From Bacilli bacterium (lineage in GTDB: Bacteria > Bacillota_I > Bacilli_A > RF39 > UBA660): a stretch of DNA of 64,000 nt. Where the stretch lies: NCBI GenBank assembly GCA_017409025.1, contig JAFQTN010000001.1:71088-135087 (forward strand), read 5' to 3'. Shown in pieces: positions 2,370-36,795 of the stretch. Below the pieces are notes generated by a model that was not told the origin of the DNA, did no database searches, and saw only the letters and a list, made by a program, of their open reading frames with translations. Position 1 is the stretch's first letter. Each line of letters opens with the position of its first letter. Made by a program: the position numbers and the translations under genes.

Positions 2370-3032
2370 ATGTATTTTAAAGAAAAAGAAGATACTAATA
2401 TAGATAAAGAGTTTGAAAAAAATAAAAAAGTAAGTTTTAATTTTGATTTTAAAAATTTAAATCCTAAATTATTGTTATTTATAGGCGTAGGAATTATTTT
2501 TTTACTTATAGTAATTTTTATAATAACCTCATTAACAAAAAATAATAATGATGATTATACTATTGAATTAGTAGGAGGAGAAAATATTACTATAAATTTA
2601 GGTGACGAATATATTGAACCCGGATATAGTGCATATGATAAAAAAGATAATGATATAACAAATAAAGTAGAAATAACTAGCACGGTTGATACTACCAAAG
2701 CTGGAGAATATGAAGTATTATATTCAGTCGGAAAAACTAATGTAATAAGATATGTTAAAGTAGTAGAAAATATAGATGTAACTTATATCTACTTGCTTGG
2801 TAAAAAAGATATGTATATAGAAATTGGAGAAAAATATACAGAACCAGGATATGAAGTATATGATAGTAAGGAACAAAATTTAACTGAGAAAGTAACTATA
2901 ACAGGAAAAGTTGATGTTACTAAAGTAGGAACATATCGACTAACTTATACCGTAGTCAATTCTAGAAATATAACTACATCAGTAGTAAGAACTGTTATAG
3001 TCGTAGAAAAAGGAAAAAAAACACAAAATTAA
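2370..3032 (+). CDS. Membrane-anchored protein with two Ig-like (DUF5011-type) repeats
   Basis: N-terminal TM helix. Two repeats read G(D/E)xY(I/T)EPGY.(A/V)YD...(N/D)(I/L)T.KV.IT..VD.TK.G.Y.L.Y.V. Confidence 0.55.
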   Translation: MYFKEKEDTNIDKEFEKNKKVSFNFDFKNLNPKLLLFIGVGIIFLLIVIFIITSLTKNNNDDYTIELVGGENITINLGDEYIEPGYSAYDKKDNDITNKVEITSTVDTTKAGEYEVLYSVGKTNVIRYVKVVENIDVTYIYLLGKKDMYIEIGEKYTEPGYEVYDSKEQNLTEKVTITGKVDVTKVGTYRLTYTVVNSRNITTSVVRTVIVVEKGKKTQN

Positions 3033-3114: not shown

Positions 3115-3324
3115 ATGAATAACTCAAATACAAATAAACTAGTTGTTCCAGGAGCTAAGCAAGCTATCGAAAGAATGAAATATGAAATAGCTAACGAATT
3201 TGGTGTTAACTTAGGACCAGATGCAACTTCAAGAGCTAACGGATCAGTAGGTGGAGAAATCACTAAAAGATTAGTAAAATTAGGACAAAATCAATTAAGT
3301 GGTAACTATACTCAAGGTAAATAA
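3115..3324 (+). CDS. Alpha/beta-type small acid-soluble spore protein
   Basis: [47 protein letters not shown] is the canonical SASP signature. Confidence 0.92.
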
Positions 3325-4442: not shown

Positions 4443-4471
4443 TTGTATTTTATTAAGAGATACGATATAAT
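4443..4471 (+). promoter_or_regulatory. SigA-type promoter of the sipW operon
   Basis: TTGTAT (4443-4448), 17-nt spacer, TATAAT (4466-4471). Confidence 0.5.
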
Positions 4472-4502
4472 TAAATAGTATAACAATAAGGGAGTGTTTT
4501 TT

Positions 4503-5162
4503 ATGTCTGCAAATTTAGAAATAGAAAATAGTTTTAATAATATTTTTGGAGTTAAACACTATAATGTAAAAATAATTAAAAAGAAAGAAAATTTCTTTAA
4601 ATATGCAATTAGTGTTCTTTCATATGCATTATTTATTTGGCTACTATTAATAGGAGGTACATTACTACTATATGTAGCAGATATTAAAATAAGGGCAGCC
4701 AAAGGAGATTATTCGGCCCCAGTATTTAATGCTTATGTTGTACTATCTGGTAGTATGTTACCGGAAATTGCTGTAAAAGATATTGTAGTAACCAAAAAAG
4801 TACCTGCAGAAGAATTAGAAATAGGAGATATCATTACGTTTATTTCACCTGATACAAGATATGGAGGAATATCCATAACACATAGAATACTAGATAAAAA
4901 ATATGATGAATCTTTAGGAAGTTATACCTATAGAACAAAAGGTGACAATAATAATGTAGCGGATACTGCCTTAGTACCTAATACTAATATCTTAGGTAAA
5001 GTAATATTAAAAGTACCTAAATTAGGATATATACAAGACTTACTATCAAGCAAAGGCGGATTAATCATAATAGTATTAATACCATGTTTAGTAATCTTAT
5101 CTTATGATATTATGAAGATATTTAAAAATATTGGGAAAAAAACAAAACTAATAAAAGAGTAG
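4503..5162 (+). CDS. sipW: Signal peptidase I, SipW (archaeal/ER) type
   Basis: N-terminal TM helix, SGSMLPEI catalytic-Ser box, ITHRI, TKGDNN, and a C-terminal TM helix. ATG 4503 lies 8 nt after GGGAG. Confidence 0.8.
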   Translation: MSANLEIENSFNNIFGVKHYNVKIIKKKENFFKYAISVLSYALFIWLLLIGGTLLLYVADIKIRAAKGDYSAPVFNAYVVLSGSMLPEIAVKDIVVTKKVPAEELEIGDIITFISPDTRYGGISITHRILDKKYDESLGSYTYRTKGDNNNVADTALVPNTNILGKVILKVPKLGYIQDLLSSKGGLIIIVLIPCLVILSYDIMKIFKNIGKKTKLIKE

Positions 5163-5172
5163 GATGATCTTT

Positions 5173-6837
5173 ATGTCAAAGAAAAAATTAGAGGTTGTAG
5201 AATTAAACAAAAAAGAAGAAAAAATAATTCTCGAAGAAAAACTTAATCCATGGAATTTGTTTTGGAAAAAATACGGACAATTAGTATATTTAACATCATT
5301 AATTCTATCAATAACTATATTAATAATAAGTTTATTTATATTTGTCTCTAATTTGTTCTCATCTGATCATCCAACTATTAAAGAAGTATCAATTGATGTC
5401 GATATAAATTCATCAAGTGTAACATTAGATTCACAATCAGCACTTACTGATGAAACAGCTACAAATACTTTTAACAATAATAGTATCTTCAAAAGTAACG
5501 GTGAAGTATTAGAAGTAAAAACTATTGAAGAAGATTTGTATATTCTTAAATTTTATAGTGATTTTACCGTTATAAAAATAATGAAAAATCAAAATATTGT
5601 TACCAGAATCAATTCCCTAGATGAATATACTTATGGAATAGATGAAAATGGTGTTTTAAATAGTAAAGCAATAATATCAGATACATCAATTATTAGTACT
5701 AAAAATTATCCTTGGGGAAAAGTTAATTTTTATAAAGATGGTTCAGCAGAAATATTTGATTCTAAAATTAATCTCTTTGTTAGAAATTCTAAAGATATAG
5801 AAAAAAATTATATTTCTAATAATAAAGTAAGTTATCTAAAAGAAACTAAAGACATTAATAATATAAAATTAAATTATTATTATGATGGAACTATTGAAGT
5901 AATCAAAGATAATAAAAGTTATTTAGTAAGAAACGAAAATGACTTAGATATAAAAAGTAACAATGTAACATTTAAAAACAACAATGAATCTACTATAAGA
6001 AAAACAATAAACTTATCAGATGGATGCAAAATAGATTATTATACCGATGGTGGAGCAATAATAACTGATGGAGAAAATACAATAAGTGTTAGAAAAAGTA
6101 ATAGTATTATAATAAAAGATAATAAAATATATGAAATTGTTGATAATATATATGTAGAAGTAAGTAATACTAAGGATAATGGAAATGTTACTTACTACAC
6201 TAATGGTGGAGCTGTTATAAAAGATTATAATGGAAAAACATTATATACTCCTGAAAACAGTTATATAAAATATAAAAAAGATAATAGAATATCAAATGTT
6301 ACACATAGTTATGAAAAATTAACAGAACAAAGAACAATAGAAAAGGACAAAATAACAAAATTTGAAACTGTTGCAGTAGTAGAAACAGAAAAATTCATAG
6401 CAATAGTACCAAAAGATAATATTTTATATGATAGTGATGGTTCGCTAAAAGAAATATTAGTAAATGAAATAGAAAATACTGGCAATCCAATAATCATAGA
6501 AAATAATACTAATGAGTTAATTAATTATAGAGTAGTTATTGAAAAGTCAAGTAGAACTAATTTAGATATAGAATATATTAAATATCAATTATCTGTAGGA
6601 GATACTTACATAAGTCCTACAAGATTAGACTCAAAGATATGGAAATATGATAATTTAGCTGATGGACTATCTATAACTGGTACAAACTATATACTACTAG
6701 ATAAAGAATTAGAACCACACGCTAAAGATGAAATAAAATTAATGTTGTGGACAGATTATGAAAAAATTCCAAATTCAATGCAAGATAAATACTTTTATGG
6801 AACAATAAAAGTATATGCATGGAAAGATTTAAAATAA
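5173..6837 (+). CDS. Membrane-anchored repeat protein with C-terminal TasA-like beta-sandwich domain
   Basis: TM helix at about aa 40-65. At least four repeats of Y(Y/K).(D/N)G(G/S/T)A.I.D. The C-terminus IENNTNELINYRVVIEK...IKLMLWTDYEKIPNSMQDKYFYGTIKVYAWK parallels the N-domain of the next protein. Confidence 0.5.
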   Translation: MSKKKLEVVELNKKEEKIILEEKLNPWNLFWKKYGQLVYLTSLILSITILIISLFIFVSNLFSSDHPTIKEVSIDVDINSSSVTLDSQSALTDETATNTFNNNSIFKSNGEVLEVKTIEEDLYILKFYSDFTVIKIMKNQNIVTRINSLDEYTYGIDENGVLNSKAIISDTSIISTKNYPWGKVNFYKDGSAEIFDSKINLFVRNSKDIEKNYISNNKVSYLKETKDINNIKLNYYYDGTIEVIKDNKSYLVRNENDLDIKSNNVTFKNNNESTIRKTINLSDGCKIDYYTDGGAIITDGENTISVRKSNSIIIKDNKIYEIVDNIYVEVSNTKDNGNVTYYTNGGAVIKDYNGKTLYTPENSYIKYKKDNRISNVTHSYEKLTEQRTIEKDKITKFETVAVVETEKFIAIVPKDNILYDSDGSLKEILVNEIENTGNPIIIENNTNELINYRVVIEKSSRTNLDIEYIKYQLSVGDTYISPTRLDSKIWKYDNLADGLSITGTNYILLDKELEPHAKDEIKLMLWTDYEKIPNSMQDKYFYGTIKVYAWKDLK

Positions 6838-6863
6838 ATATATAAGAATAAGAGGTGATACTT

Positions 6864-9140
6864 ATGATAGATTTTGTAAAAGCAAAAAGACATTATATTA
6901 TGGCATTAGCTATAATGTTTGTTGTCGTATCATTAAGTGGAACCACTTATTCTCTTTTCTTTAATGTAGACTCAACAGATAATTTTACTTATAATACTGG
7001 TATTCTAGACTTACAATTTGTTGAAGATGAACAAATAAATATTCAAAATGCTTTTCCAATAATAGATAGTGAAGGCTTAAATTCAACACCATATACACTT
7101 ACTATAAAAAATACTGGTTCTCTACCATATCTATTTGATATAAAAATGTTATCTACAACAGAAGATAATGTTATAGATATGAAATATATTAAAATTCAAG
7201 TAAATAATGATGATGCAGCAACTTTATATGAAAAAAGTAACATTATTGCTTCAAATATAATATTATATCCAGAAGAAGAAAAAACATTTAAAGTAAAAGT
7301 ATGGTTAGATATTAATACTCCAAATGCAGAATTAGGAAAAACATTTATGGCTAAACTTGTAACTAGTGGAGAGGCAATATATAAAACTCTAGATACAAGC
7401 GGAGCTAATCACCCAGATTTAACAGATGATATGATTCCAGTATATTATGATGAAACCACAAAAGAGTGGAAGAAAGCAGACCATAGTAATACAATTAATA
7501 CATATGAATGGTATAACTATGATAATGGAAAATGGGCAAATGTTGTAACAATTAAAAGTGGAAATAAAAAAATATATGATATAACAAGAAATAATAATTT
7601 AAATATAACAGAAACAAGAAACAATAATGGCAATTATATAAGTGATGAATCATCACTAGATATCGGATTATCTAATTATAATTATAATAATATAAGTAAT
7701 ATCTTTAGAATAAAATTTAATGATTTAAACGAAGATAACACATATATTATCTCAAATGGTAAAATAAGTTATTATTACAATAATAAAACAAACAAATTTA
7801 CATTAAAAGTAGGAAATAACACCGTAGAATCTTCTACATATCAACTAGAAGTTGGTAAATGGTATATATTAGGTTATACATACGATACTAATAAAGTATC
7901 ATTCTATATAGACGGAAAAAATATATCTACAAAAAACATATCAGGAAGTATTTATTCAAATAATAGTTTTAAAATAGCTACAGATAATGATCAAACTATA
8001 ATATCAAATCTTGAAGTTGGAGATATCTACATATATAAAAATATTTTAACTGAAGAAAATATAAATAATAATTATAAAAATGAAATAAATATAATTTACA
8101 ATAATCTAGTAGCTGGTTACAATGATTTTGAACCTAAAACACTAAGTGAATATTATGATGGAGAAGACTTTGGTTCAACCATTTTACTAGATGATATTAA
8201 CTCATTCTATGTATGGATACCTAGATATAAATATAAATTGTGGAATGTAACAGGTACCCCAGGAATCGATTCTTATGATGCATATAATAAGGGAATAGAC
8301 ATAATATTTGAAAATAACCAAGAAACATCTGGAGTAATAAAATGTCAAAATAATATTTGTTATAGCGATAATTTATTAATAACAAAAGTAACCAATAATG
8401 ATAATGGAAAATATTATACTCATCCAGCATTTACTACCGAAGAGAAAGAATTAACAGGAATATGGGTAAGTAAATATGAAACATCCACAAGTAGTAAAGA
8501 TTGCAACAGTGAGTCTACATCTGGTTGTCTATCGAATAATCTACAAATAGAATCTAAACCAAATAATACTGCATGGAGAAATAATTACTTATCATATTTT
8601 TATCAAAATATTAAGAAATTTGATACTAATGATAACAATTATAGTGTGATAAAAAATACTGAATGGGGAGCATTAAGCTATTTAACTCATTCTAAATATG
8701 GATTATGTCAAAATAATAAATGCGAGAATATTGGTACAAATAAAACATATATATCAGGCACAGAAATTAAAGATTCAACAACAAATAACATGTATGGTAT
8801 TTTTGACTTAAGTGGTAGTGCCACTGAATTTGTAATGGCTAATTATGCAGATGAATTTAATAATTTAACACTAAATGAGAGTCATTTTGGAAGTACACCA
8901 ATTATCAATAATGACTACGATTTATATCAAAAGAATACTTTTATACTTGGAGATGCTACTAAAGAAATATCACTAAAAGAAGGTATATGGTATAATAATT
9001 ATGCATCTTTTGTAAATGAAACTAATAATTGGTTCATAAGAGGTGGAATAGGTGTAACTGAAAATAATGGAATATTCTACTATAATGGAACGACAGATAC
9101 TAATAGCGAATATATAACAACAAGAATAGTAATAAAATAA
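6864..9140 (+). CDS. SipW-signal TasA-like domain fused to LamG-like and FGE-sulfatase/C-type-lectin-like domains
   Basis: N-terminus ..VVSLSGTTYSLFFNVDSTDNFTYNTGILDLQF..TLTIKNTGSLPYLFDIKM parallels TasA GGGTWAAFNDIKSKDATFASGTLDL..FENNGSLAIKEV. The middle region GKWYILGYTYDTNKVSFYIDG looks LamG-like. The C-terminus has GIWVSKYETS..YGIFDLSGSATEFV..FIRGG. Confidence 0.6.
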   Translation: MIDFVKAKRHYIMALAIMFVVVSLSGTTYSLFFNVDSTDNFTYNTGILDLQFVEDEQINIQNAFPIIDSEGLNSTPYTLTIKNTGSLPYLFDIKMLSTTEDNVIDMKYIKIQVNNDDAATLYEKSNIIASNIILYPEEEKTFKVKVWLDINTPNAELGKTFMAKLVTSGEAIYKTLDTSGANHPDLTDDMIPVYYDETTKEWKKADHSNTINTYEWYNYDNGKWANVVTIKSGNKKIYDITRNNNLNITETRNNNGNYISDESSLDIGLSNYNYNNISNIFRIKFNDLNEDNTYIISNGKISYYYNNKTNKFTLKVGNNTVESSTYQLEVGKWYILGYTYDTNKVSFYIDGKNISTKNISGSIYSNNSFKIATDNDQTIISNLEVGDIYIYKNILTEENINNNYKNEINIIYNNLVAGYNDFEPKTLSEYYDGEDFGSTILLDDINSFYVWIPRYKYKLWNVTGTPGIDSYDAYNKGIDIIFENNQETSGVIKCQNNICYSDNLLITKVTNNDNGKYYTHPAFTTEEKELTGIWVSKYETSTSSKDCNSESTSGCLSNNLQIESKPNNTAWRNNYLSYFYQNIKKFDTNDNNYSVIKNTEWGALSYLTHSKYGLCQNNKCENIGTNKTYISGTEIKDSTTNNMYGIFDLSGSATEFVMANYADEFNNLTLNESHFGSTPIINNDYDLYQKNTFILGDATKEISLKEGIWYNNYASFVNETNNWFIRGGIGVTENNGIFYYNGTTDTNSEYITTRIVIK

Positions 9141-9172
9141 GAAAGTATAACCAAAAATTATACTTTCTTTTT
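9141..9172 (+). terminator. Rho-independent terminator ending the sipW operon
   Basis: GAAAGTATA (9141-9149) / TATACTTTC (9159-9167), then TTTTT. Confidence 0.75.
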
Positions 9173-9234
9173 AATTTAAATTTCTTTTTTTTATATATTA
9201 TGGTATAATAAAAAAAGAATAAAGGGTGATGTAT

Positions 9235-11577
9235 ATGAGTGGACTAGCATCTTATTTTGTAAGAGAACCAAATAAATTAATTCCAGCCAATAAATTCGTT
9301 GTAAGAGGGAAAAACTATAGGTTTTCTGTATTAACACCAAGATTAATTAGACTAGAATATAGTAAAAATGGCGTGTTTGAAGATAGAGCAACTTCTCTAG
9401 TAGTCAACAGAACCTTTAATGATTGTGTATTTTCAGTTAGTTCAGATGAAACAACGCTATATATATCAACCGAATATTTTTCTTTAACTTATATAAAAGA
9501 AAGTCCACTGACATCAAAAACAATCAGAGTAAAAGTAAATGGAACAGATAAAGAATGGACACGAGGACACCAAGATGTTAGAAATTGCGGAAGTCTAAGT
9601 TATTCACTAGATGATTTAAACGATAAATTTAAATTATCAAATGGATTATATTCGATGTCTGGTTATGCGGAGATTGATGATTCTAATAACTTTGTTATAG
9701 ATAAAGACAACTTCATAAAAAGAGAAGGAATAACAGATATATACTTATTTGTATATAGAACTGATTTAGGATTATGCCTACAAGATTATTTTAATTTAAC
9801 CGGATATCCACCAATGATACCAAGATATACCCTAGGATCTTGGTGGTATAAAAATGATAAATATAATATGTATGAAATAGATGAAACACTAAAAAAATTT
9901 CATGATAATCATATTCCAATATCAGTTTTTCTTCTTGGAGATAAATGGCATAATGATGTAGAAAATTATAATTATGATAGAACATTATTTGATGTTAATA
10001 ATATCCAAAAATATTATTCAAATAAGTTGCAAAAATTTGGACTTACAATCAACCCAAGTTTAAAAATTACACCTAATGATCCAATATATAACGAATTAAT
10101 TAAATATATTCCACAAGCAAATAATACTATATCGTTTATACCACTAAACAATAATAGTATAAACTTATATCTAAATTTGGTTGTAAACAATCTAATGAAT
10201 AGTGGAATAAATATATTTAATATAGATTATAATAATAAATCTGATAAAGATAATCTTTTTCTATTAAATCACTATCATTATGTTATATCTAATATGAATA
10301 TAAGAGGAGTAATTTTATCAAGAAATCCAAGAGTAGCTCCGCATAGATATCCAATTATTTATAGTGGTAAAACTAAAGTCAGTTGGAATACGCTAAGATT
10401 TCTTGCATCATACAATAATAGTGCATCTAATTTGGGTGTTAGTTGGCACACACATGCAATTGGAGGATACTACGGTGGAATCGAAGATGATGAATTATAC
10501 TTAAGATATATTCAATTTGGAGTATTTAATCCAATATTTATCCTTGCCAGTGATGCTGGAAAATATTATAAAAGAGAACCATGGAAGTGGAATCAAACAA
10601 TACTAAGTGTAATAAGAGAATATATGCAATTAAGAAATAAATTGGTTCCATATATATATAATGAAAGTTATAATTATCACAAATTTGGAGTTCCATTAAT
10701 TCAACCACTATACTATAAATATCCTAAAATTTATGATGAACCGAACTATGTAAATCAATATTTCTTTGGTAGTAGAATAATGATAAGTCCAATAACTAAA
10801 AGAAAAAATTCAGAAATGAATAGAGTTGTTCAAAGAATATTTATTCCAAACGGCATATGGTATGATTATTCAACTGGTAAAAAATTTATTGGGAATAAAT
10901 ATTATATGAATTTTTATAAAAATGAAGATTATCCAATATTCATAAAAGAAGGTTCTATTATTCCAATGTCATTAGATGATAATACTGACTGTCCTAAAAA
11001 TATGGAAATTCAAATATTTCCGGCAGAAAATGGCTTATATGGAAGTTACGAATTATATGAGGATGATGGTATTAGTTTGAATCCAGGAGAAAATTATTTA
11101 ATAACTAAAATGAACTTAGATAAAGTAGAAAATGGTTATAAATTTACAATTACTCCCAAAGAGGGAAATATGAATATTGATAGTAGAAATTATTTACTTC
11201 GTTTTAGAAATATGAAAAGTCCGCAACATGTAATAGTTAACTATGAAGGACAAATTATAAATAATAAATATGAAATAGAAAAAAATGATTTAATAGTTAA
11301 ATTAGAAAATATTCACGTATATTCTAAAGTTGAAATAAATATAATTGGAACTAATCTAGAAATAGAAACAGAAAGTGTGATAAATGAAGAAATTGAAGGA
11401 ATATTATATGACTTAGAAATAAATACTATCTTAAAATATAAAATAGATGGTATAATATTTAGCGACATTCCAATAAAAAAGAAAAGAATTGCACTAAGAA
11501 AATTAAAAAAAGATAAATTAGAACCAAAATATATTAATATGTTTATTGGTTTATTGGATTTTATTGAAATAAAATAA
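9235..11577 (+). CDS. Glycoside hydrolase family 31-like protein (cytoplasmic)
   Basis: GH31 blocks FNIDYNN, HAIGGYYGG..LYLRYIQFGVFNPIF and REPW are present. There is no signal peptide. See the finding on substituted catalytic residues. Confidence 0.7.
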   Translation: MSGLASYFVREPNKLIPANKFVVRGKNYRFSVLTPRLIRLEYSKNGVFEDRATSLVVNRTFNDCVFSVSSDETTLYISTEYFSLTYIKESPLTSKTIRVKVNGTDKEWTRGHQDVRNCGSLSYSLDDLNDKFKLSNGLYSMSGYAEIDDSNNFVIDKDNFIKREGITDIYLFVYRTDLGLCLQDYFNLTGYPPMIPRYTLGSWWYKNDKYNMYEIDETLKKFHDNHIPISVFLLGDKWHNDVENYNYDRTLFDVNNIQKYYSNKLQKFGLTINPSLKITPNDPIYNELIKYIPQANNTISFIPLNNNSINLYLNLVVNNLMNSGINIFNIDYNNKSDKDNLFLLNHYHYVISNMNIRGVILSRNPRVAPHRYPIIYSGKTKVSWNTLRFLASYNNSASNLGVSWHTHAIGGYYGGIEDDELYLRYIQFGVFNPIFILASDAGKYYKREPWKWNQTILSVIREYMQLRNKLVPYIYNESYNYHKFGVPLIQPLYYKYPKIYDEPNYVNQYFFGSRIMISPITKRKNSEMNRVVQRIFIPNGIWYDYSTGKKFIGNKYYMNFYKNEDYPIFIKEGSIIPMSLDDNTDCPKNMEIQIFPAENGLYGSYELYEDDGISLNPGENYLITKMNLDKVENGYKFTITPKEGNMNIDSRNYLLRFRNMKSPQHVIVNYEGQIINNKYEIEKNDLIVKLENIHVYSKVEINIIGTNLEIETESVINEEIEGILYDLEINTILKYKIDGIIFSDIPIKKKRIALRKLKKDKLEPKYINMFIGLLDFIEIK

Positions 11578-23152: not shown

Positions 23153-23833
23153 ATGAAATTAATTAGAAAACTAAAATATCCAATAACCATAATCTTATTT
23201 ATATTAATAATTCTCTATGTAATCTATATAAAGAATAATTTAAATAATTCTAAATATGAAAATATAGTTATAGAAAATGATATTTTAAAAGAAGAAACTG
23301 ATGTAAAAGATGAAGAAGATATTATTAAATATAATGTTGATATAAAAGGAGCTATAAAAAATCCCGGAGTATATCAAGTAGACAGTAATTTAACAGTTAA
23401 TGATGTTATTGATATAGCTGGTGGATTAACAAAAGATGCTGATACTTCAGTAATAAATTTAGCAAAGAAAATCACTGATGAAATGGTTATAATTATTTAT
23501 ACTAAAGAAGAAGTAAAAAATTCTAATATTGTAGATACTGTAATAAAAGTAGTTGAAAAAGAATGTGTATGTCCTAATATACAAAATGATGGATGTTTAA
23601 ATACTGAAATAAAAGATAATATTACAAATAGTGAAAATAATAATTTAGTAAATATTAATACAGCTACTAAAGAAGAATTACAAACTATTAAAGGCATTGG
23701 AGAAAGTAAAGCAGATAGTATTATTAAATATAGAGAACAAAATGGTAATTTTAAAACAATTGAAGATATAAAAAATGTTGAAGGTATAGGAGATACATTA
23801 TACGAGACTATTAAAATATATCTTACAACATAG
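23153..23833 (+). CDS. comEA: Competence protein ComEA (DNA receptor)
   Basis: TM helix, SLBB-like IKGAIKNPGVY, and C-terminal HhH VNINTATKEELQTIKGIGESKADSIIKYRE. Confidence 0.85.
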   Translation: MKLIRKLKYPITIILFILIILYVIYIKNNLNNSKYENIVIENDILKEETDVKDEEDIIKYNVDIKGAIKNPGVYQVDSNLTVNDVIDIAGGLTKDADTSVINLAKKITDEMVIIIYTKEEVKNSNIVDTVIKVVEKECVCPNIQNDGCLNTEIKDNITNSENNNLVNINTATKEELQTIKGIGESKADSIIKYREQNGNFKTIEDIKNVEGIGDTLYETIKIYLTT

Positions 23834-24032
23834 ATATTATATAAAAATAACAACTATATTTTTTTTAATAATAATTATAATATTCACTATCGTATATAAA
23901 AAAGAAAGTATTTATAATGGAAATGAAACAGAAATAGAAGGAATAGTATATAAAAAGAAACAAACTAAAAATAAATTAACACTATATATAAAAGCAAAAG
24001 AAAAAATAGTTATAAATTACTACTCTGAAGAA

Positions 24033-25850
24033 GTGATAAATATTAATTTAGGTGATGAAATAAAAGTAACTGGTACTCTAAAAGTACCACCTAGTAACAC
24101 AATACCTAATCTATTTAATTATAAAAAATATTTATATTATAATGATATATACTATACAGTAACAGCTACCAGTATTGAAAAGACATCAAATAACACTAAT
24201 ATAATATATTATATAAAAGATACAATTTCTTCTAGAATAGATAAAATATATAAATCAAATGAATATATCAAAATATTTCTACTAGGAGATACTTCTTTAT
24301 TAGATGAAAACATTAATGAAAGTTATAGACAAAATGGAATATCTCATTTATTTTCAATATCCGGTATGCATATAAGTCTATTCGCATCAATTATTTTATA
24401 TATCTTAAAAAGAATATCCTATAATAACTATTATAATTATGGAATAGTTATCTTATTTTTATTCGTATATACATTATTAGTTGGTCCTTCACCATCTGTT
24501 ATAAGAAGTTTAATAATGTATATCATATTCTCAATAAATAAAGTGTTTAATTTAAAAACTAAAAACATTGACATAATGTGTTTAGTATTAATTATAATGT
24601 TATTAATTAATCCATATTATTTATATAATATTTCATTTCAATATTCATATTTAATTTCTTTTACTTTAATATTGTTTAGTAACAAAATAAAAAATATCAA
24701 GAATAAAATTAATAAAAGTTTGTATATCTCATTTGTTTCATTTTTAGTATCTTTCCCTATATGTATATATAATTTTTATCAAGTAAATATTATTTCAATA
24801 TTCCTAAATTTATTAGTGATTCCTCTAGTGAATATTTTTATTTTTCCACTTTCATTAATAAGTTTCATTATCCCAAAAATAAGTTATATACTATCTTTAT
24901 TTACAAATATTCTTCAAAGTATATCATTATTTATATATAACAATGATTTTGGAGTAATCATATTCCCTAAATCCAGTATCTTACTAGTGATAATATACTA
25001 TATATTTATATATTCTTACTTATATAACAAAAAGATAATTTTAATTTATCTACTTATGTTTGCACATAAATTTTATAATTATATAGATACTTCAATGGAA
25101 GTAATTTCATTAGATGTAGGCCAAGGAGATTCTGTGTTAATTAAGTACCCATATAATGAGGCAAATATTTTAATAGATACCGGGGGAATATCAAATAGCG
25201 ATTACAGTATAACTATAAATAAAACAACTCCATATTTAAAAAGTGTTGGAATAACGCACATAGACTACCTAATTATTACACATGGCGACTACGATCATAT
25301 GGGTGAAGCAATTAATTTAGTAGAAAACTTTAAGGTAGAGAAAGTAATCTTTAATTGCGGTCAGTTTAATAATTTAGAAAAAGATCTAATTAAAGTTTTG
25401 AATAAAAAGAAAATCCCATATTATTCTTGTATTAAAGAATTAAATATAGATGATAATAAATTATACTTTTTAAATAATAAAGAATATAGTAACGAGAATG
25501 ATAATTCATCAGTAATTTATACTGAACTAAATAAGCGTAAATTTCTATTTATGGGAGATGCAGGAATAGAGGTTGAAGAAGACTTAATTGAAAAATATAA
25601 CTTGCAAGATATTGATATTTTAAAAGTAGGACATCACGGAAGCAAGACAAGTTCTTCAAAAGAATTTATTAATGAAATTAATCCGAAATATTCAATTATA
25701 AGTGTAGGAAAAAATAATAGATATGGTCATCCGAATGATAGTGTATTAGAAAATTTAGATAATTCAAAAATATATAGGACAGATCAAGATGGAAGTATTA
25801 TGTTTGAGATTAAGAATAATAAACTAAAAGTTGAGACGAGTGTACCATAG
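24033..25850 (+). CDS. comEC: DNA internalization competence protein ComEC/Rec2 (with C-terminal metallo-beta-lactamase domain)
   Basis: Competence domain ..YRQNGISHLFSISGMHI.. and MBL LDVGQGDS..HGDYDH..VGHHGS. The first canonical start is GTG 24033, but the frame is open from 23790. Confidence 0.85.
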   Translation: MININLGDEIKVTGTLKVPPSNTIPNLFNYKKYLYYNDIYYTVTATSIEKTSNNTNIIYYIKDTISSRIDKIYKSNEYIKIFLLGDTSLLDENINESYRQNGISHLFSISGMHISLFASIILYILKRISYNNYYNYGIVILFLFVYTLLVGPSPSVIRSLIMYIIFSINKVFNLKTKNIDIMCLVLIIMLLINPYYLYNISFQYSYLISFTLILFSNKIKNIKNKINKSLYISFVSFLVSFPICIYNFYQVNIISIFLNLLVIPLVNIFIFPLSLISFIIPKISYILSLFTNILQSISLFIYNNDFGVIIFPKSSILLVIIYYIFIYSYLYNKKIILIYLLMFAHKFYNYIDTSMEVISLDVGQGDSVLIKYPYNEANILIDTGGISNSDYSITINKTTPYLKSVGITHIDYLIITHGDYDHMGEAINLVENFKVEKVIFNCGQFNNLEKDLIKVLNKKKIPYYSCIKELNIDDNKLYFLNNKEYSNENDNSSVIYTELNKRKFLFMGDAGIEVEEDLIEKYNLQDIDILKVGHHGSKTSSSKEFINEINPKYSIISVGKNNRYGHPNDSVLENLDNSKIYRTDQDGSIMFEIKNNKLKVETSVP

Positions 25851-27420: not shown

Positions 27421-28182
27421 ATGGTCTATGTTGATCTATTGGTTATTCAAAATGTGATATATAATTACGTAATACTCTTAGGAGTAAGTATCTTGTTAAC
27501 AAGAATAACCAACCTAAAAAAAATATTTCTCTCTTCGGTCGTGGGAACAATTCCTATAATTTTTCTATTCTTAAATACAAGTAGTCAAATAAATCTTTTA
27601 ATATCATTAATGTTTTCTATTATTATGTCCATAATAGCATTCCAATATAAAGATATAATTTACACTCTAAAAAATATCTTTTATATGTATACAACAAGTA
27701 TTTTCATCGCAGGTTCAATCTACTTAATAAATACAAGTCTTCTTCCTACTATAAATAATCATTTAGTAAATGTAATAATACTAATTTTAATATCTCCAGT
27801 AATAACTTTGATTTATATAAAAAGTATAAATAAATATAAATCTAACTATTCTAATTATTATAAAGTAGACATATATTTAAAAGAATCAAAAAAACTAAAT
27901 CTAACAGCATTTTTAGACACAGGAAACAAACTAATAGATCCATATAAACAAAGACCAATCATTTTAATAAAAAAATCTCTAATAGATGTAGAAAAACAAA
28001 AAATAATTTTAGTTCCATATAATACCGTTAATAATAGTGGCCTATTAAAATGTATTGTTCCAGAAAAAATATATATTGATCATATAGGTTTTAAAAAGAA
28101 TTTTCTAATAGGTTTAATGGATGAAGTGAATATTGAAGGAGTAGACTGTATACTAAATACAAAATTATTAGAAAGGATATAA
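27421..28182 (+). CDS. spoIIGA: Sigma-E processing peptidase SpoIIGA
   Basis: Five N-terminal TM helices, FLDTGNKLIDP aspartic-protease motif, and position directly upstream of sigE. Confidence 0.85.
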   Translation: MVYVDLLVIQNVIYNYVILLGVSILLTRITNLKKIFLSSVVGTIPIIFLFLNTSSQINLLISLMFSIIMSIIAFQYKDIIYTLKNIFYMYTTSIFIAGSIYLINTSLLPTINNHLVNVIILILISPVITLIYIKSINKYKSNYSNYYKVDIYLKESKKLNLTAFLDTGNKLIDPYKQRPIILIKKSLIDVEKQKIILVPYNTVNNSGLLKCIVPEKIYIDHIGFKKNFLIGLMDEVNIEGVDCILNTKLLERI

Positions 28183-28183
28183 A

Positions 28184-28873
28184 ATGAATTTAATCAAAAA
28201 AATATTTATAAATTTAATGAAGAAGTACAGTTGTTTATTATTCGTAGGTAGTACAGATATTTTACCAGAACCATTAAGTAAAGAAGAAGAAATAAAATAT
28301 GTTGAATTATCTATGAATAATGATCAGGCAGCAAGAAATAAATTAATTGAACATAATTTAAGACTAGTAGTATTTTTAGCTAAAAAGTATGATAATACCA
28401 GTACGGATTTAGAAGATCTTGTATCAATTGGAACAATTGGTTTAATTAAAGCAGTAAATACCTATAGACTAGATAAAAATATAAAATTAGCGACATATGC
28501 ATCAAGGTGTATAGATAATGAAATACTAATGTATTTAAGAAAAACAAAAAGAAAAAGAACTGAAATAAGTTTTGAAGATAGTCTAAGTTATGATGCAGAT
28601 GGAAATGAACTTCATCTAGAAGATGTTCTAGGAACTGAATCAGACATAGTAACAAAAGGATTGGATGACGAATTAGATAAAAGCATGATGTTAGAGGAAA
28701 TTGAAAAACTAACTCCACGTGATAAAGAAATAATAGAATTAAGATATGGATTAAATGGAAAAAGAGAAATGACTCAAAAAGATGTTGCATCACTATTAGG
28801 GATAAGTCAATCATATATATCCAGAATAGAAAAGAAAGTAATAAAAAAACTAAAATCTATAATTAGAAATTAA
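28184..28873 (+). CDS. sigE: Sporulation sigma factor SigE (pro-sigma E)
   Basis: Pro-sequence + LPEPLSKEEE.., NLRLVVFLAKKY, and region 4 QKDVASLLGISQSYISRIEKK. Confidence 0.9.
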   Translation: MNLIKKIFINLMKKYSCLLFVGSTDILPEPLSKEEEIKYVELSMNNDQAARNKLIEHNLRLVVFLAKKYDNTSTDLEDLVSIGTIGLIKAVNTYRLDKNIKLATYASRCIDNEILMYLRKTKRKRTEISFEDSLSYDADGNELHLEDVLGTESDIVTKGLDDELDKSMMLEEIEKLTPRDKEIIELRYGLNGKREMTQKDVASLLGISQSYISRIEKKVIKKLKSIIRN

Positions 28874-32507: not shown

Positions 32508-33113
32508 TTGGACAAGAAAAAATTAATAGGAACAATTATAGGAGTAACTTTATTTGTGGTGCTAGTAGCAGGTGCGACATTCGCGTGGTTAACATTTAGT
32601 GCAACAATAACAAATGGAAATTATGTTTATCAAACAAAAAATTTCGTAATTAACTATGAAAGAGGAGATCAAAGTTTAGGAGGAAATCTTCCAAGTTTGA
32701 CAACCGCTACAGCAGCTACTGCCACAGAAACAGTAGTATCAGCTTTTAGAGATGCAGGAACACCAAATGGTATATTATATCTAAAAGTAACTAGTAGCGA
32801 TAGCAACATAACTAAAGGTGGGGCTGTTAGATACGCAGTATGTAGTGGAACAGAAAGCGAATCAGATTGTACAGGTAATTTATTATCCGGAGAAACAGGA
32901 GTATTATCTACTGGTTCAATAACAAATGTAGGAGAAACAATAATGTATCAAACTGCAGATCCAGATTTAAATGAAGCTGGAGAAGGTGTTGGTATTCCAA
33001 CAGTAAAAACATATTATTGGATATATTTTTGGATGAACCCTTCAAATTTAACAAATGCAATGATTTCTGAAACATACGAAGGTTATGTACATGCATCAGC
33101 AGAACAAAGATAG
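32508..33113 (+). CDS. SipW-type signal peptide protein, TasA/camelysin-like (paralog 1)
   Basis: N-terminus MDKKKLIGTIIGVTLFVVLVAGATFAWLTF. C-terminus TYYWIYFWMNPSNLTNAMISETYEGYVHASAEQ (compare TasA ..NKYQGNSIKLQFSFEATQ). TTG start after AGGAGGAG. Confidence 0.55.
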   Translation: MDKKKLIGTIIGVTLFVVLVAGATFAWLTFSATITNGNYVYQTKNFVINYERGDQSLGGNLPSLTTATAATATETVVSAFRDAGTPNGILYLKVTSSDSNITKGGAVRYAVCSGTESESDCTGNLLSGETGVLSTGSITNVGETIMYQTADPDLNEAGEGVGIPTVKTYYWIYFWMNPSNLTNAMISETYEGYVHASAEQR

Positions 33114-33372
33114 TATTAAATAAATCTTAATAATATCAAAAAAGTAAATTATTATTTAAGAATTTAGAAAGAGTAATTTACTACAAAAATTAATAAATTT
33201 TAAAATATCTTAAAGATAATAATTTCAAATTTTTCTTAACAATAATAAGTTAATGAATTGATAAAAAGTTAAGGCAACACAGTTTGAATATTATATATAA
33301 GAATTTTAAAATTTTTTTATTAACATAAAATATAATGTAAAAATAATTAAAAAGAAAGAAATGATATATACT

Positions 33373-34107
33373 ATGAAAAAACAAAAAAAAGTAACAATAG
33401 CTAATGTTTTTCTTATTGTAGCAATATTTCTAATAATAGGTGGCGGAACATTTGCGTTTTGGACATGGGTAAACCCAGAAGAAGAAAAGACGAATATAAT
33501 ATTTAAAACACCAGGCATAGAAGAAATGAAAAGTAAATTGTATGCTAATTTAGAGGGCTCTGGGAATATGGAAGTTACAGATTTGAAACCATCATTATGT
33601 AACGGGGATAATGCCATAAAAAAAACAATAGTAATTAATTACTTAAATCAAACAAAACAAACTGCAACAGTATCTGCAACGTTAGAAGTACCAAGTGAGT
33701 TATTTATTTTACCAGTAAAAGAAATAACTGAAAACAACGAATTGACAGAACAAATATTGATTCCAACGCAAGAAAATTTACAAGAATTAAAATTTGCATT
33801 AACAACAGAGTCTACTTCATGTGATGATGGCATCGTTACAGATATTGATGGCAACGAAATTAAAGGAAATTTCTCGCAGTTAGTATTTGATACTCAGACA
33901 AAAAAAAATGAACAACTTACATTGTTTACTCATAATTTTACAGCACCATCTAATATGTCGGTAGAAGATACAAAGATATATTATTTATGGATATGGTTAG
34001 ATTTAGACTATACTCACACAAATATAGGAAATAGAAACGACGATCCAATGCAAGGAATAAGATTTATAACCCAATGGTCAGGAGAAATAGCACAAAATAA
34101 TACATAA
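33373..34107 (+). CDS. SipW-type signal peptide protein, TasA/camelysin-like (paralog 2)
   Basis: N-terminus MKKQKKVTIANVFLIVAIFLIIGGGTFAFWTW (TasA has GGGTWAAF). C-terminus IYYLWIWLDLDYTHTNIGNRNDDPMQGIRFITQWSGEIAQ. An alternative ATG lies at 33361. Confidence 0.6.
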   Translation: MKKQKKVTIANVFLIVAIFLIIGGGTFAFWTWVNPEEEKTNIIFKTPGIEEMKSKLYANLEGSGNMEVTDLKPSLCNGDNAIKKTIVINYLNQTKQTATVSATLEVPSELFILPVKEITENNELTEQILIPTQENLQELKFALTTESTSCDDGIVTDIDGNEIKGNFSQLVFDTQTKKNEQLTLFTHNFTAPSNMSVEDTKIYYLWIWLDLDYTHTNIGNRNDDPMQGIRFITQWSGEIAQNNT

Positions 34108-34681: not shown

Positions 34682-36019
34682 ATGAATAATAATCAAAATA
34701 TAAATAATTTTAATCAATCTAATAATAATCAAATGATAAATAATCAGCCAGTAAAAAAGACTGTTAAAACAAATGATGAAAATCAGAATGAAAAACCTAA
34801 ATTAAAAAGATTTAAATACAAAGTTAAAGATCAATCAGGTCAAATAATAGAGAGTTATTTTGATGCTGAAACTCAATTAGATGTTCAATCATTCTTACTA
34901 AATAAAGGATATGAAGTAATGTCAATTACAGAAGACAAATTATCCACAAGTTTAGGTTTAACTTTAATGTCAACATCAAAAAAGATGTCATCTAAAGATT
35001 TAAACTTCTTTTTAACACAATTATCTACATATATAAAATCAGGTATTCCTTTAGTAGAGTCTATGGAAATATTAAGTAGACAAGCAAAAAGTAAATCGCT
35101 TCAAATGTTATATAGAAAAATAGTATTTGAATTAAATAAAGGAACCACTTTTAGCATTTGTCTTGAAAAACAAGGAAAGGTTTTTCCTAAAATGCTAATA
35201 AATATGTTGAAAACATCAGAAATGACCGGTGATTTAACAGGAGTTTTAGACGACATGGCAGCATACTATAAAAGACAAGATAGTAATAGAAAAGAAATTA
35301 TAAATGCCATGACATATCCATCGGTATTATTGATATTTGCAGTAGCAGTTTTAACATTCATTATAACATATGTGGTACCATCATTTACTGATATGTATGA
35401 TTCTGCTGGAGCCTCACTTCCTAAAATTACCCAAGTTATTATGAATATCAGTGATTTTGTTATTCAAAACTGGTACTACATACTATTAGTGATAATAGTT
35501 ATTGCGGTAATTCTAAGTTTATTATACAAAGGATTAAAATCAGCTAAATACATGATGCAATCTTTTGTAATGCATATTCCAGTAGTAAGCGACATTATAA
35601 AATATAATCAATTAGTAACCTTTACTAGTACATTTTCAACATTAATAAAACATGATGTATTTATAACTGATAGTATGGATATTTTAAGCAGAATAACTGA
35701 AAATGAAATCTATAAAAAAATAATAGATGATTCTATAAAGAATTTAAGTAAAGGAAACGGAGTATCCGTAGCATTTAAAGGTCATTGGGCATTTCCTGCT
35801 ACGGCATATGAAATGTTAGTAACTGGAGAAAAAACAGGAAGACTTGGAGAAATGATGGAACATGTTGCGGCGTACTACCAAGAGGAACAAAGTAACTTAG
35901 TTTCTAGAATGAAAAGTTTAATAGAACCAATCATGATTGTTATGTTAGCAGTTATAGCTGGTGTCATTTTATTGGCAGTAGTAGTTCCTATGTTTGATAT
36001 TTATAGTACAATAATATAA
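34682..36019 (+). CDS. Type II secretion / type IV pilus platform protein (PilC/GspF/ComGB family)
   Basis: Two T2SSF repeats (LSTYIKSGIPLVESMEIL.. and FSTLIKHDVFITDSMDIL..) with 3 TM helices. There is an Asn/Gln-rich N-terminal extension. Confidence 0.85.
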   Translation: MNNNQNINNFNQSNNNQMINNQPVKKTVKTNDENQNEKPKLKRFKYKVKDQSGQIIESYFDAETQLDVQSFLLNKGYEVMSITEDKLSTSLGLTLMSTSKKMSSKDLNFFLTQLSTYIKSGIPLVESMEILSRQAKSKSLQMLYRKIVFELNKGTTFSICLEKQGKVFPKMLINMLKTSEMTGDLTGVLDDMAAYYKRQDSNRKEIINAMTYPSVLLIFAVAVLTFIITYVVPSFTDMYDSAGASLPKITQVIMNISDFVIQNWYYILLVIIVIAVILSLLYKGLKSAKYMMQSFVMHIPVVSDIIKYNQLVTFTSTFSTLIKHDVFITDSMDILSRITENEIYKKIIDDSIKNLSKGNGVSVAFKGHWAFPATAYEMLVTGEKTGRLGEMMEHVAAYYQEEQSNLVSRMKSLIEPIMIVMLAVIAGVILLAVVVPMFDIYSTII

Positions 36020-36030
36020 AGGAGTTAACT

Positions 36031-36795
36031 ATGGAGAAGTTATATTTAATTATATTTTTTATTTTTGGAAGTATAATGGGTTCTTTTTACCATGTCATAG
36101 CCACTAGATTATCTAATGGGTTATCAATAGTTAAACCCGCTTCTCATTGTGAAAAATGTAAACATCAATTAAAATGGTATGAATTAATACCGATAATATC
36201 ATATCTAATGCAATTTGGAAAATGTAGAAAGTGTAAAACAAAATTACCATTAAGTTATTTTTTGATAGAATTATGCACAGGAATTTTATTTGCAGTTTGT
36301 TATCATGTATTTGATACCCCACTAGAAATTGCAATATCTATAATATTTGTATCAAGTTTAGTAATCATAATAATAAGTGATATAGAGTATATGATAATTT
36401 TAGATGAAGTATTAATTGTGGCTATATTATCGATAATAGTTTTGGACATTATAGATATAGGTCTATATCAAACATCAATTAAAATATTGTATGGAGCAGG
36501 CTCATTTATTACCATGTTATTAATAAAAAAATTAGGTGATATAATATTTAAACAGGAATCTTTAGGTGGTGGGGACATTAAGTTAATGTTTCTAATTGGA
36601 TTAGTCATTGGATATGAAATGGCAATTTGCAATATTTTCTTTGCTACATTCATTGCATTTCCAATAGCATTATTTCTATTAATATCAAAGAAAGATAACA
36701 TAATTCCCTTCGGACCATTCTTAAGTATGTCTGCAATAATTTTATACATATGGGGTATTAATTTTACAGATATAATAAACTTTATAATATCATAA
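36031..36795 (+). CDS. Prepilin peptidase (A24 family; PilD/ComC-like)
   Basis: N-terminal CEKC..CRKC zinc motif and GGGDIKLM catalytic-Asp box; polytopic. Confidence 0.85.
   Translation: MEKLYLIIFFIFGSIMGSFYHVIATRLSNGLSIVKPASHCEKCKHQLKWYELIPIISYLMQFGKCRKCKTKLPLSYFLIELCTGILFAVCYHVFDTPLEIAISIIFVSSLVIIIISDIEYMIILDEVLIVAILSIIVLDIIDIGLYQTSIKILYGAGSFITMLLIKKLGDIIFKQESLGGGDIKLMFLIGLVIGYEMAICNIFFATFIAFPIALFLLISKKDNIIPFGPFLSMSAIILYIWGINFTDIINFIIS

Follow-up and report, generated by a model that had tools for sequence, protein, structure and literature searches.

Donor-strand fibres of the TasA type are familiar as scaffolds of biofilms, where they are built of small subunits. The locus described here lies in a stretch of 64,000 nucleotides (the window, meaning the whole of the DNA analysed) and raises the question of what a SipW-type signal peptidase gene and two following genes for large proteins make together, given that one of the proteins (P3) begins with a TasA-like module and continues into a lectin-like domain, and that the other (P2) is predicted to be anchored in the membrane. 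We lean towards the view that the products of this cassette form a small TasA-superfamily system for fibre building or surface display, assembled by donor-strand exchange, with P3 as the tip adhesin, P2 as the anchor and acceptor, and SipW as the processing enzyme.

Three open reading frames lie on the forward strand in the order sipW, P2, P3, with intergenic gaps of 10 nt (sipW/P2) and 26 nt (P2/P3), at the positions given in a first-pass annotation of this DNA:

4443..4471, forward strand: putative sigma-70 promoter read from the sequence, with −35 TTGTAT (4443-4448), a 17-nt spacer and −10 TATAAT (4466-4471)
4488..4494, forward strand: ribosome-binding site AAGGGAG, 8 nt upstream of ATG 4503, with AATAAGGGAGTG conserved across orthologous loci
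4503..5162, forward strand: sipW, encoding an archaeal/ER-type signal peptidase I of 219 aa, identified by a TIGR02228 match and motifs
5173..6837, forward strand: P2, 554 aa, with a charged cytoplasmic N-terminus, one membrane helix, a repeat stalk and a C-terminal beta-sandwich
6864..9140, forward strand: P3, a modular secreted protein of 758 aa, with an N-module, a LamG domain and a C-terminal domain
9139..9174, forward strand: intrinsic terminator, a 12-bp hairpin (9139-9169) followed by TTTTT

The first-pass annotation had described three genes bracketed by one promoter and one terminator, and the genes, their sizes and the hairpin are real; its lengths of 555 and 759 aa include the stop codon, and the proteins have 554 aa (P2) and 758 aa (P3). 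The promoter at 4443-4471 stands in part. Its −35 box matches the consensus at only 3 of 6 positions and therefore fails the promoter scan's own rule, and promoter-like matches of such quality occur at chance level in DNA of 25% GC (51 found, 48 expected). Nevertheless, TTG, TATAAT and the ribosome-binding blocks are nearly the sole conserved columns in an alignment of 13 orthologous upstream regions. Hence, the promoter is weak by itself yet conserved across 13 loci. The terminator hairpin has a predicted ΔG of −10.2 kcal/mol (z = −4.84), and a hairpin followed by a T-run is found downstream of the P3 stop codon in at least 9 of 12 orthologous loci. Moreover, the order sipW-P2-P3 is identical in every one of the 12 complete orthologous loci despite differences in the flanking genes, and the three genes form one conserved operon. 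All of the orthologous loci come from MAGs of gut Bacilli/"Tenericutes", and paralogues of the P3 N-module found elsewhere stand alone, without sipW or P2.

The sipW reading frame can open at GTG 4494; ATG 4503 was chosen as the start because it lies 8 nt after AAGGGAG and because orthologues are 219 aa long. The product has two membrane segments (aa 31-63 and 179-208) and carries the motifs SGSM (aa 82-85), THR (aa 127-129) and GDNN (aa 147-150). The SipW-type family is marked by such Ser/His/Asp-type motifs (SGSM, xHR, GDNN), as opposed to the Ser/Lys dyad of LepB-type enzymes. The model for archaeal/ER-type signal peptidase I, TIGR02228, matches at 101.7 bits and passes its cutoff of 51.85, which bears out the SipW-type assignment made earlier. 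Two other models stay below their cutoffs, at 23.4 bits (cutoff 47) for the bacterial-type TIGR02227 and at 92.3 bits (cutoff 190) for NF046067, the equivalog model of Bacillus SipW. Judged by these motifs and profile scores, the product is of the same enzyme type as Bacillus SipW, without an orthologue-level match. It could alternatively be the general signal peptidase of its host organism.

The link to TasA is found at the N-terminus of P3. The protein has more than 900 homologues, and the best 120 of them all share its architecture:

6864..6953, forward strand: P3 signal peptide (aa 1-30), with a predicted SipW-type cleavage site, T28-Y29-S30↓L31-F32, taken from the hhalign column map
6954..7379, forward strand: P3 TasA-like N-module (aa 31-172), a putative donor strand (aa 31-46) followed by an eight-strand beta-sandwich
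7431..8171, forward strand: P3 LamG/concanavalin-A-like lectin domain (aa 190-436), Pfam Laminin_G_3
8172..9137, forward strand: P3 C-terminal 'cargo' domain (aa 437-758), weakly FGE-sulfatase-like

When the P3 N-terminus (aa 1-185) was compared with a TasA-family profile, hhalign returned a match of 93.8% (E = 1.7e-7, 80 columns) that spans the signal, the cleavage site, the donor strand and the first strands, in the same register as an alignment previously made by eye. In this match P3 T28-Y29-S30↓L31-F32 falls on TasA T25-W26-A27↓A28-F29, behind a short hydrophobic region, and S23, L24, T28, Y29, S30, L31 and F32 are invariant in 35 P3 orthologues. The hydrophobic residues of the TasA donor strand, F29, I32 and F39 (PMC9674648), map onto P3 F32, V35 and Y43; P3 Asn34 is not conserved. 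With the signal peptide removed, the match of the N-module to TasA weakens to 50.7% (E = 1.6e-4). The C-terminal halves of the P3 module and TasA do not align (hhalign E = 0.11), and a last-strand motif supposedly shared by the two (N.YQG..F.F.A.Q) was unsupported by hhalign (E = 0.11 and 0.053).

Searches with curated models give lower scores. PF12389 is the top family for the P3 N-module at 16.0 bits (E = 0.011), below its cutoff of 22.5, and does not match full-length P3. Among 37 representatives of the module, PF12389 is the top Pfam family in 18 and the NCBIfam TasA model (NF046066) is the top family in 8, and the curated TasA/CalY/camelysin cutoffs (PF12389, NF046066) are reached by neither P2 nor P3. 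TIGR04088, the model for SipW-dependent-type signal peptides (cutoff 19 bits), matches neither P3 nor P2 and finds 4 of the 37 representatives (best E = 0.12); the SipW-type signal motif of P3 aligns with TasA by hhalign only. PDB sequence searches with single sequences and three profiles returned neither TasA nor a relative, and pairwise BLAST of the window proteins against one another and of P3 against TasA stayed at noise level. The module core also has weak matches to the generic Ig-like families FixG_C, WxLIP_PGBD and DUF7507. A weak match to NF046003, the DxFTY family, was set aside since the motif is not conserved and the orthologue consensus is FNY. In the AF2 model, the sandwich of eight strands at aa 47-172 is confident (pLDDT ~80-90), and aa 26-46 are unpacked (pLDDT < 50). 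Taken together, profile comparison, and profile comparison only, indicates homology between the start of P3 and TasA across the signal, the donor strand and the first strands; the TasA module proposed earlier for P3 thus stands for its N-terminal half, and not for its C-terminal half or at curated thresholds.

Behind the module, P3 carries domains of another kind. Laminin_G_3 (PF13385) matches at 37.3 bits (E = 3.7e-9) and passes its cutoff of 27.6, LamG being the sole family found when full-length P2 and P3 were scanned against Pfam and NCBIfam. The domain is modeled at pLDDT > 90, and Foldseek with full-length P3 finds pentraxin, LamG and trans-sialidase lectin domains (E = 4e-9 to 1e-6); these LamG matches fill the list and mask the small module. 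The C-terminal domain, a second putative binding domain for which the AF2 model is poor, resembles PF03781, always under the cutoff, in 11 of the 35 orthologues and in 14 of 19 diverse members (best E 0.004-0.009), and its profile finds 5vf4, an uncharacterised protein, among PDB sequences (E = 0.0011). It is heavily expanded in related MAGs, with 375 related stretches in genomes and dozens of copies per MAG. Furthermore, 12 ORFs in related MAGs place this domain behind type IV prepilin leaders, and the five that were checked all pass the PF07963 cutoff; the domain sits on genuine pilin leaders and therefore behaves as filament-borne cargo. With its N-module, LamG and C-terminal domain, P3 resembles a tip adhesin or an anchor more than a plain fibre subunit, as the first-pass annotation had suggested.

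P2 matches no Pfam or NCBIfam family, and its AF2 model (mean pLDDT 82.6) suggests a membrane-anchored stalk:

5272..5367, forward strand: P2 membrane anchor (aa 34-65), hydropathy peak 2.74 over ~26 residues, helix at 26-62 in the AF2 model
5470..6462, forward strand: P2 stalk (aa 100-430), ~six tandem beta-hairpin repeats of ~55 aa with a recurring YYxDG motif
6478..6819, forward strand: C-terminal beta-sandwich of P2 (aa 436-549), paralogous to P3 aa 75-169, the core of the P3 module

P2 had been described as a repeat protein, and rightly so: a self-alignment of aa 100-432 by hhalign shows off-diagonal matches shifted by ~56 aa (98%, E = 1e-13), and the stalk shows a regular strand pattern in the AF2 model. 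Foldseek with the full-length P2 model returned only low-TM propeller and phage-tail matches, small modules being invisible at full length, and matches to influenza HA2 in the PDB sequence search (E ~0.01) were dismissed as compositional chance. A TasA-like domain had also been placed at the C-terminus. This domain is related to the P3 module core (hhalign 96.2%, E = 2.1e-9), was found among the window ORFs by hmmsearch with the family HMM (E = 1.7e-5) and is predicted by AF2 to form a seven-strand sandwich at aa 438-554; it lacks the signal, donor strand and first strands of the P3 module, and its comparison with the TasA profile gives no direct signal (hhalign E = 0.16). Hence, the kinship with the P3 module holds, and kinship with TasA itself is not demonstrable. 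P2 carries no signal motif of the SipW type: a T-Y-S/A-type cleavage motif is absent after the membrane helix, and TIGR04088 gives no match. A short conserved strand, IKEVSID, directly follows the helix, and a family-HMM search found no match between the segment after the helix and the donor-strand region of the module.

The N-module belongs to a large family (2,773 clusters at 50% identity) in which it is always N-terminal and fused to varied adhesin-type domains, including LRR/BspA, DUF285, the Listeria-Bacteroides repeat, LamG, ALK-type glycine-rich and others. Its genes lie singly, scattered through related genomes. Five small paralogues had been reported 23 kb downstream of the operon; four of them match the P3-type module and one went undetected. 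Small proteins of this region are encoded at 32508-33113, 33361-34107, 38506-39075 and 39091-39663. They are not linked to the sipW-P2-P3 cassette, and one small protein (33361-34107) scores 12.3 bits with TIGR04088, below the cutoff of 19. Genes for PilC and PilD sit among these small paralogues. Their position prompted a comparison of the small proteins with type IV pilins, which was rejected: none has a G-F-T-L-I-E leader, and all of the hydrophobic regions end in T/S-aromatic-A/G instead.

From these observations we infer donor-strand assembly along the following lines. SipW would cut P3 after Ser30 and free its N-terminal strand, so that mature P3 would start with LFFNVD. This strand would enter the incomplete P2 sandwich, with or without a short shaft of small subunits in between, for which the four detectable paralogues 23 kb downstream are candidates. 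The lectin-like head of P3 would then be held at the tip of the membrane-anchored P2 stalk, where, in the gut, it may attach to a glycan or to some other ligand on a surface. A broader reading, which we regard as doubtful, is that SipW and P2 form a sortase-free general surface dock, such that any protein with an N-module could plug its donor strand into the sandwich at the P2 tip; one anchor would then present an exchangeable adhesin repertoire across a widespread clade of gut Bacilli that are so far uncultured.

Other explanations have to be weighed against the tip-adhesin reading. It is unlikely, in our judgment, that there is no donor-strand assembly here, with P3 starting in a standard Sec signal or a membrane anchor and a generic Ig-like spacer behind it, the peptidase being the housekeeping enzyme of this lineage and the two large proteins simply co-expressed surface proteins. 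Such a view accommodates the fact that every TasA-family match lies below curated thresholds, the weak resemblance of the module core to FixG_C, WxLIP_PGBD and DUF7507, and the module paralogues that occur elsewhere without sipW or P2. Against it stand the invariant cleavage-site and putative donor-strand residues, in register with TasA, and the ranking of TasA as top family in two independent libraries; the trio is kept in 12 of 12 loci despite changing flanks, and a module copy without a donor strand, as in P2, is hard to explain as a spacer.

Still less probable is a fibre in which P3 itself, cleaved by SipW, polymerises head-to-tail through donor strands and is decorated with lectin domains, with P2 as a TapA-like nucleator and cell anchor. 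P3 does have a donor strand plus a complete sandwich, TasA and BsaA polymerise in just this way, and the P2 strand IKEVSID could serve as a donor. Against this, no known shaft subunit of the TasA superfamily resembles an 87-kDa protein with two large domains at its C-terminal end, the donor-strand region of the module finds no match in the P2 segment behind the helix, and published tip proteins (TafC) have the layout of P3, a pilin-like domain followed by LamG. Finally, we give very little credence to P3 being a secreted enzyme rather than an adhesin, for example an oxidase of the FGE/SUMF type or an enzyme that modifies glycans, beside an unrelated membrane protein P2. The similarity of the C-terminal domain to PF03781 is weak and consistent, yet no member reaches the cutoff, the best PDB relative is uncharacterised, and a domain that each MAG carries dozens of times, after leaders of the pilin or TasA-like kind, fits variable ligand-binding modules of the surface and does not fit an enzyme.

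If the tip-adhesin reading is correct, TasA chemistry would be what holds large lectin-like heads on a membrane stalk in common uncultured gut Bacilli, offering a concrete, testable adhesion system in organisms without genetics. In addition, the 2,773-cluster family is not annotated as TasA-related, and its common N-terminal module is missed by current Pfam and NCBIfam models.

Comparison with known systems brings out several parallels. The first-pass annotation had called it a tapA-sipW-tasA-like operon. As in that Bacillus subtilis operon, a dedicated archaeal-type signal peptidase adjoins its substrates, the T-aromatic-small↓x-F cleavage motif and the donor strand are in register, and an accessory protein is encoded within the operon. 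In contrast to tapA-sipW-tasA, the cassette is sipW-first (sipW, P2, P3) and has no TapA homologue, P2 belonging to no Pfam or NCBIfam family and being membrane-anchored with an acceptor-like copy of the module; the module of P3 is ~140 aa long, N-terminal and fused to ~580 aa of lectin-like domains, and aligns with TasA only in its N-terminal half. The comparison is therefore better drawn with the sipW-bsa operon of Clostridium perfringens and with archaeal tafi loci. A further parallel is offered by FimH-type chaperone-usher tip adhesins, which combine a pilin-type beta-sandwich with a lectin domain and join their fibre by strand complementation. FimH shares this two-part design with P3, but its lectin domain is N-terminal, its pilin domain is acceptor-only, and it needs a chaperone, an usher and a diderm envelope. 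In Streptococcus sanguinis, the modular type IV pilins PilB and PilC likewise fuse a filament handle to an adhesin or lectin module (PMC8179133, PMC9934059), as do the true type IV pilin leaders that carry the P3 C-terminal domain in related MAGs; P3 itself has a TasA-like donor-strand module as its handle, in place of a pilin alpha-helix.

The C. perfringens operon, sipW-bsaA-bsaB-bsaC (PMC11580942), also has sipW in first place, and its products include remote homologues of TasA and a third protein that is large. Its BsaA fibres are membrane-anchored and type IV pilus genes are implicated in their secretion, PilC and PilD being found among the small paralogues here; on the other hand, BsaC belongs to the von Willebrand A (vWA) proteins, and BsaA is a plain subunit in which an isopeptide bond of an N-E-K triad acts as a lock. 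Haloarchaeal tafi comprise a signal peptidase (TafD), a tip (TafC) with an N-terminal pilin-like beta-sandwich and a laminin-G-like domain, shaft pilins (TafA/TafE), and an anchor (TafF) that joins a single membrane helix to a jelly-roll domain proposed to accept the last donor strand (PMC11821415, PMC12337348). Set against these published descriptions, the cassette likewise has a peptidase, a putative tip protein with a pilin-like module and LamG (P3) and an anchor consisting of a helix and a module copy (P2). Tafi occur in archaea, depend mostly on Tat and have the genes of their shaft pilins within the locus, whereas the cassette is bacterial and Sec-type, has no shaft gene in the operon, and adds a 330-aa repeat stalk to its P2 anchor and an FGE-like domain to its P3 tip. 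Should the proposed assembly hold, bacteria would have a counterpart to the arrangement of tip, shaft and anchor that has been proposed for tafi in archaea.

The cassette comprises three closely packed open reading frames on a common strand, which confirms the three-gene observation of the first-pass annotation:

4503-5162, + strand, sipW, signal peptidase gene (ORF call)
5173-6837, + strand, P2, 554-aa repeat protein (ORF call)
6864-9140, + strand, P3, 758-aa multidomain protein (ORF call)

The proposed promoter upstream of sipW has a perfect -10 box and a 3/6 -35 box, and judged alone in a consensus scan it does not rise above the chance level for the AT-rich DNA of the window. When the 140 nt before sipW were aligned between the window and 12 orthologous loci (loci from related MAGs carrying sipW-P2-P3), the blocks TTG, TATAAT and AATAAGGGAGTG were nearly the sole conserved columns. 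A terminator hairpin at 9139-9169 (-10.2 kcal/mol, z = -4.8) is followed by a T-run, and a different hairpin with a T-run occurs at the matching position in most orthologous loci. The earlier proposal of one promoter and one terminator is thus backed by recurrence across loci, but not, for the promoter, by the consensus scan. A glycosidase gene follows:

9201-9209, extended -10 box TGgTATAAT, own promoter element of the GH31 gene
9226-11577, GH31 glycosidase gene, next after the cassette (family scan)

Because the gene lies 3' of the cassette in one related locus (L001) and is absent there in another (L002), we regard it as a neighbour outside the operon.

The sipW-P2-P3 order is kept in 12/12 complete loci examined, with flanks partly or wholly different. 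Full-length homologues number in the hundreds for P2 and likewise for P3; the organisms carrying the loci are labelled in the source records as MAGs of uncultured Bacilli, Tenericutes or Clostridiales, with a gut origin indicated by several of the names (Hadza human stool, rumen RUG bins, rabbit 'Lapin' bins). P2 and P3 themselves have identical database entries, the hypothetical proteins IJE89_00455 and IJE89_00460 from a MAG named "Bacilli bacterium". The neighbourhood (window GC 25%) is chromosomal, and holds GpsA and a LysM amidase in addition to the following:

2370-3032, upstream of the cassette, protein of 220 aa that combines a membrane segment at its N-terminus with two Ig-like domains of the bacterial surface type (PF16403, E=2e-39)
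3115-3324, small acid-soluble spore protein (SASP) gene
23153-25850, ComEA and ComEC
27421-28873, SpoIIGA, then a sigma-70-family factor gene, by position probably sigma-E

The SASP gene and the SpoIIGA-sigma factor pair show that the lineage forms spores and has a cell wall; several related MAGs are labeled Tenericutes despite this gene content.

The peptidase passes the archaeal/ER-type signal peptidase I model TIGR02228 (101.7 bits, cutoff 51.85), falls below the Bacillus SipW equivalog model (92.3 bits vs cutoff 190) and fails the cutoff of the bacterial-type model. With its SGSM, THR and GDNN motifs and two membrane segments, it is by sequence a SipW-type enzyme, as first annotated, and not an equivalog-level orthologue of Bacillus SipW.

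The link to TasA runs through the N-terminal module of P3. An orthologue-based profile covering P3 aa 1-185 was run on 1.84 billion cluster representatives and matched 2,773 clusters at E<=1e-3; among the matches listed the module is always N-terminal, in proteins of 150-1,129 aa whose C-terminal parts include LRR/BspA, DUF285, Listeria-Bacteroides repeats, LamG, an ALK-type glycine-rich domain and DUF6273, among others. Scanned alone, 18/37 module representatives had PF12389 (TasA/camelysin) as top Pfam family (best E=2.8e-5) and 8/37 had the NCBIfam TasA model as top match; for the P3 module, PF12389 was the sole Pfam match, below cutoff (E=0.011, 16 bits, cutoff 22.5). Against a TasA-family alignment seeded with B. 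subtilis TasA (seed 99% identical to the database entry), hhalign gave 93.8% probability (E=1.7e-7, 80 columns), in the same register as the earlier by-eye alignment. TasA T25-W26-A27|A28-F29 falls on P3 T28-Y29-S30|L31-F32, and G42-x-L-D-L on G46-x-L-D-L; the donor-strand residues F29, I32 and F39 (PMC9674648) fall on F32, V35 and Y43. The paired P3 residues are invariant in 35 orthologues, except V35 (mostly A, V or S). Removing the signal peptide lowered the match to 50.7% (E=1.6e-4), and hhalign did not align the C-terminal halves of module and TasA. PDB sequence searches with the module found no TasA relative, and pairwise BLAST of P3 with TasA gave no match. AF2 predicts a confident eight-strand sandwich at P3 aa 47-172, with aa 26-46 left unpacked; this is how a donor strand not in use would appear, but it is not proof. 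All 10 module-family representatives looked up were nameless, and the only names given to P3 homologues are 'hypothetical' and 'LamG-like'. Separately, a 60-aa piece (window 6864-7043) matched NF046003, 'DxFTY motif-containing membrane protein', weakly at P3 aa 7-47 (E=0.0018), with D-N-F-T-Y in P3 and mostly F-N-Y in orthologues; the short name of that model has the ending 'plasm', which perhaps stands for Mycoplasma-type, and the match may hint at a leader common to P3 and mollicute membrane proteins.

LamG (aa 274-400) is the only P3 domain found by curated libraries in a full-length scan, and was confirmed by AF2 (pLDDT >90) and by Foldseek matches to pentraxin, LamG and lectin domains (E down to 4e-9). 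The C-terminal cargo domain (aa 437-758) gave a poor AF2 model and a weak, consistent FGE-sulfatase similarity (14/19 diverse members; profile vs PDB 5vf4, E=0.0011). The domain is heavily expanded: the genome collection holds 375 related stretches, and single MAGs have at least 8 loci; examples from L014-L082 are:

L046:3404-4981, cargo-domain locus
L071:5267-7270, cargo-domain locus
L050:199-3114, cargo-domain locus
L040:2968-4623, cargo-domain locus

Of 54 untruncated ORFs in which the domain occurs, 12 open with a leader of the type IV prepilin kind (KGFTLIELLAVI...), five of which were checked and passed the PF07963 cutoff, and at least 19 have a TasA-type motif, S/T-Y/F-A-x-F/L/Y, ending the hydrophobic region at their start. 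One cargo thus sits on two different filament handles, and this sharing is the best indirect evidence from which we infer a pilin-like handle role for the TasA-like module. The arrangement parallels the modular pilins of Streptococcus sanguinis (PMC8179133, PMC9934059). Some of the cargo proteins with a pilin leader (L071, L050) also contain PF16403.

P2, which matches no curated family, has a charged N-terminus, a 26-residue membrane helix at aa 34-65, no T-Y-S-type motif behind it, and some six ~55-aa repeats in tandem (AF2 mean pLDDT 82.6). Recurrent PDB matches of aa 307-440 (~6091-6492) to influenza haemagglutinin HA2 chains (E ~0.01-0.02) were judged compositional chance. The last 115 residues of P2, annotated as TasA-like, are related to the module core (P3 aa 75-169; hhalign 96.2%, E=2.1e-9) and match the diverse module HMM among all window ORFs (E=1.7e-5), but show no direct TasA signal (E=0.16). 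Nothing in P2 corresponds to P3 aa 31-74, where the donor strand and first strands lie, and its link to TasA is therefore only transitive, via the P3 module.

Downstream, four of the five smaller paralogues proposed earlier are, behind P3 and P2, the best window matches to the module HMM; the fifth was undetected among window ORFs:

32508-33113, small protein, E=7e-5
33361-34107, small protein, E=4e-3
34682-36019, PilC/T2SS-F gene
36031-36795, prepilin peptidase gene
36901-37377, small protein, no match
37391-38383, glyceraldehyde-3-phosphate-dehydrogenase-like gene (by eye), wedged between the small secreted proteins at 36901-37377 and 38506-39075
38506-39075, small protein, E=3e-4
39091-39663, small protein, E=6e-3

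All five end their hydrophobic region in T/S-aromatic-A/G, a signal motif of the TasA type. No ATPase or G-F-T-L-I-E pilin gene lies near the PilC and prepilin peptidase pair; type IV pilus genes are needed for secretion of C. perfringens Bsa matrix proteins (PMC11580942).

The earlier interpretation is therefore partly supported. We lean slightly towards a reading in which P3 is a tip adhesin of modular build, P2 serves as both acceptor and membrane anchor, and SipW would cleave P3 and free its donor strand; the strand would then insert into P2, and P3 would bind a ligand. Module paralogues elsewhere stand alone among housekeeping genes, so a single SipW-P2 pair might serve many cargos, an arrangement we consider rather improbable. 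The reading of P3 as tip and P2 as anchor draws on two known systems. By published descriptions, the cassette parts fit the layout proposed for haloarchaeal tafi, in which TafD is the signal peptidase, TafC the proposed tip (N-terminal pilin-like sandwich plus laminin-G-like domain) and TafF the proposed anchor, with a membrane helix and a jelly-roll domain taking the last donor strand (PMC11821415, PMC12337348). The cassette also resembles sipW-bsaA-bsaB-bsaC of C. perfringens, an operon that gives fibres anchored in the membrane (PMC11580942). Judged by sequence, it appears to be a variant TasA-superfamily donor-strand system of an uncultured gut lineage.
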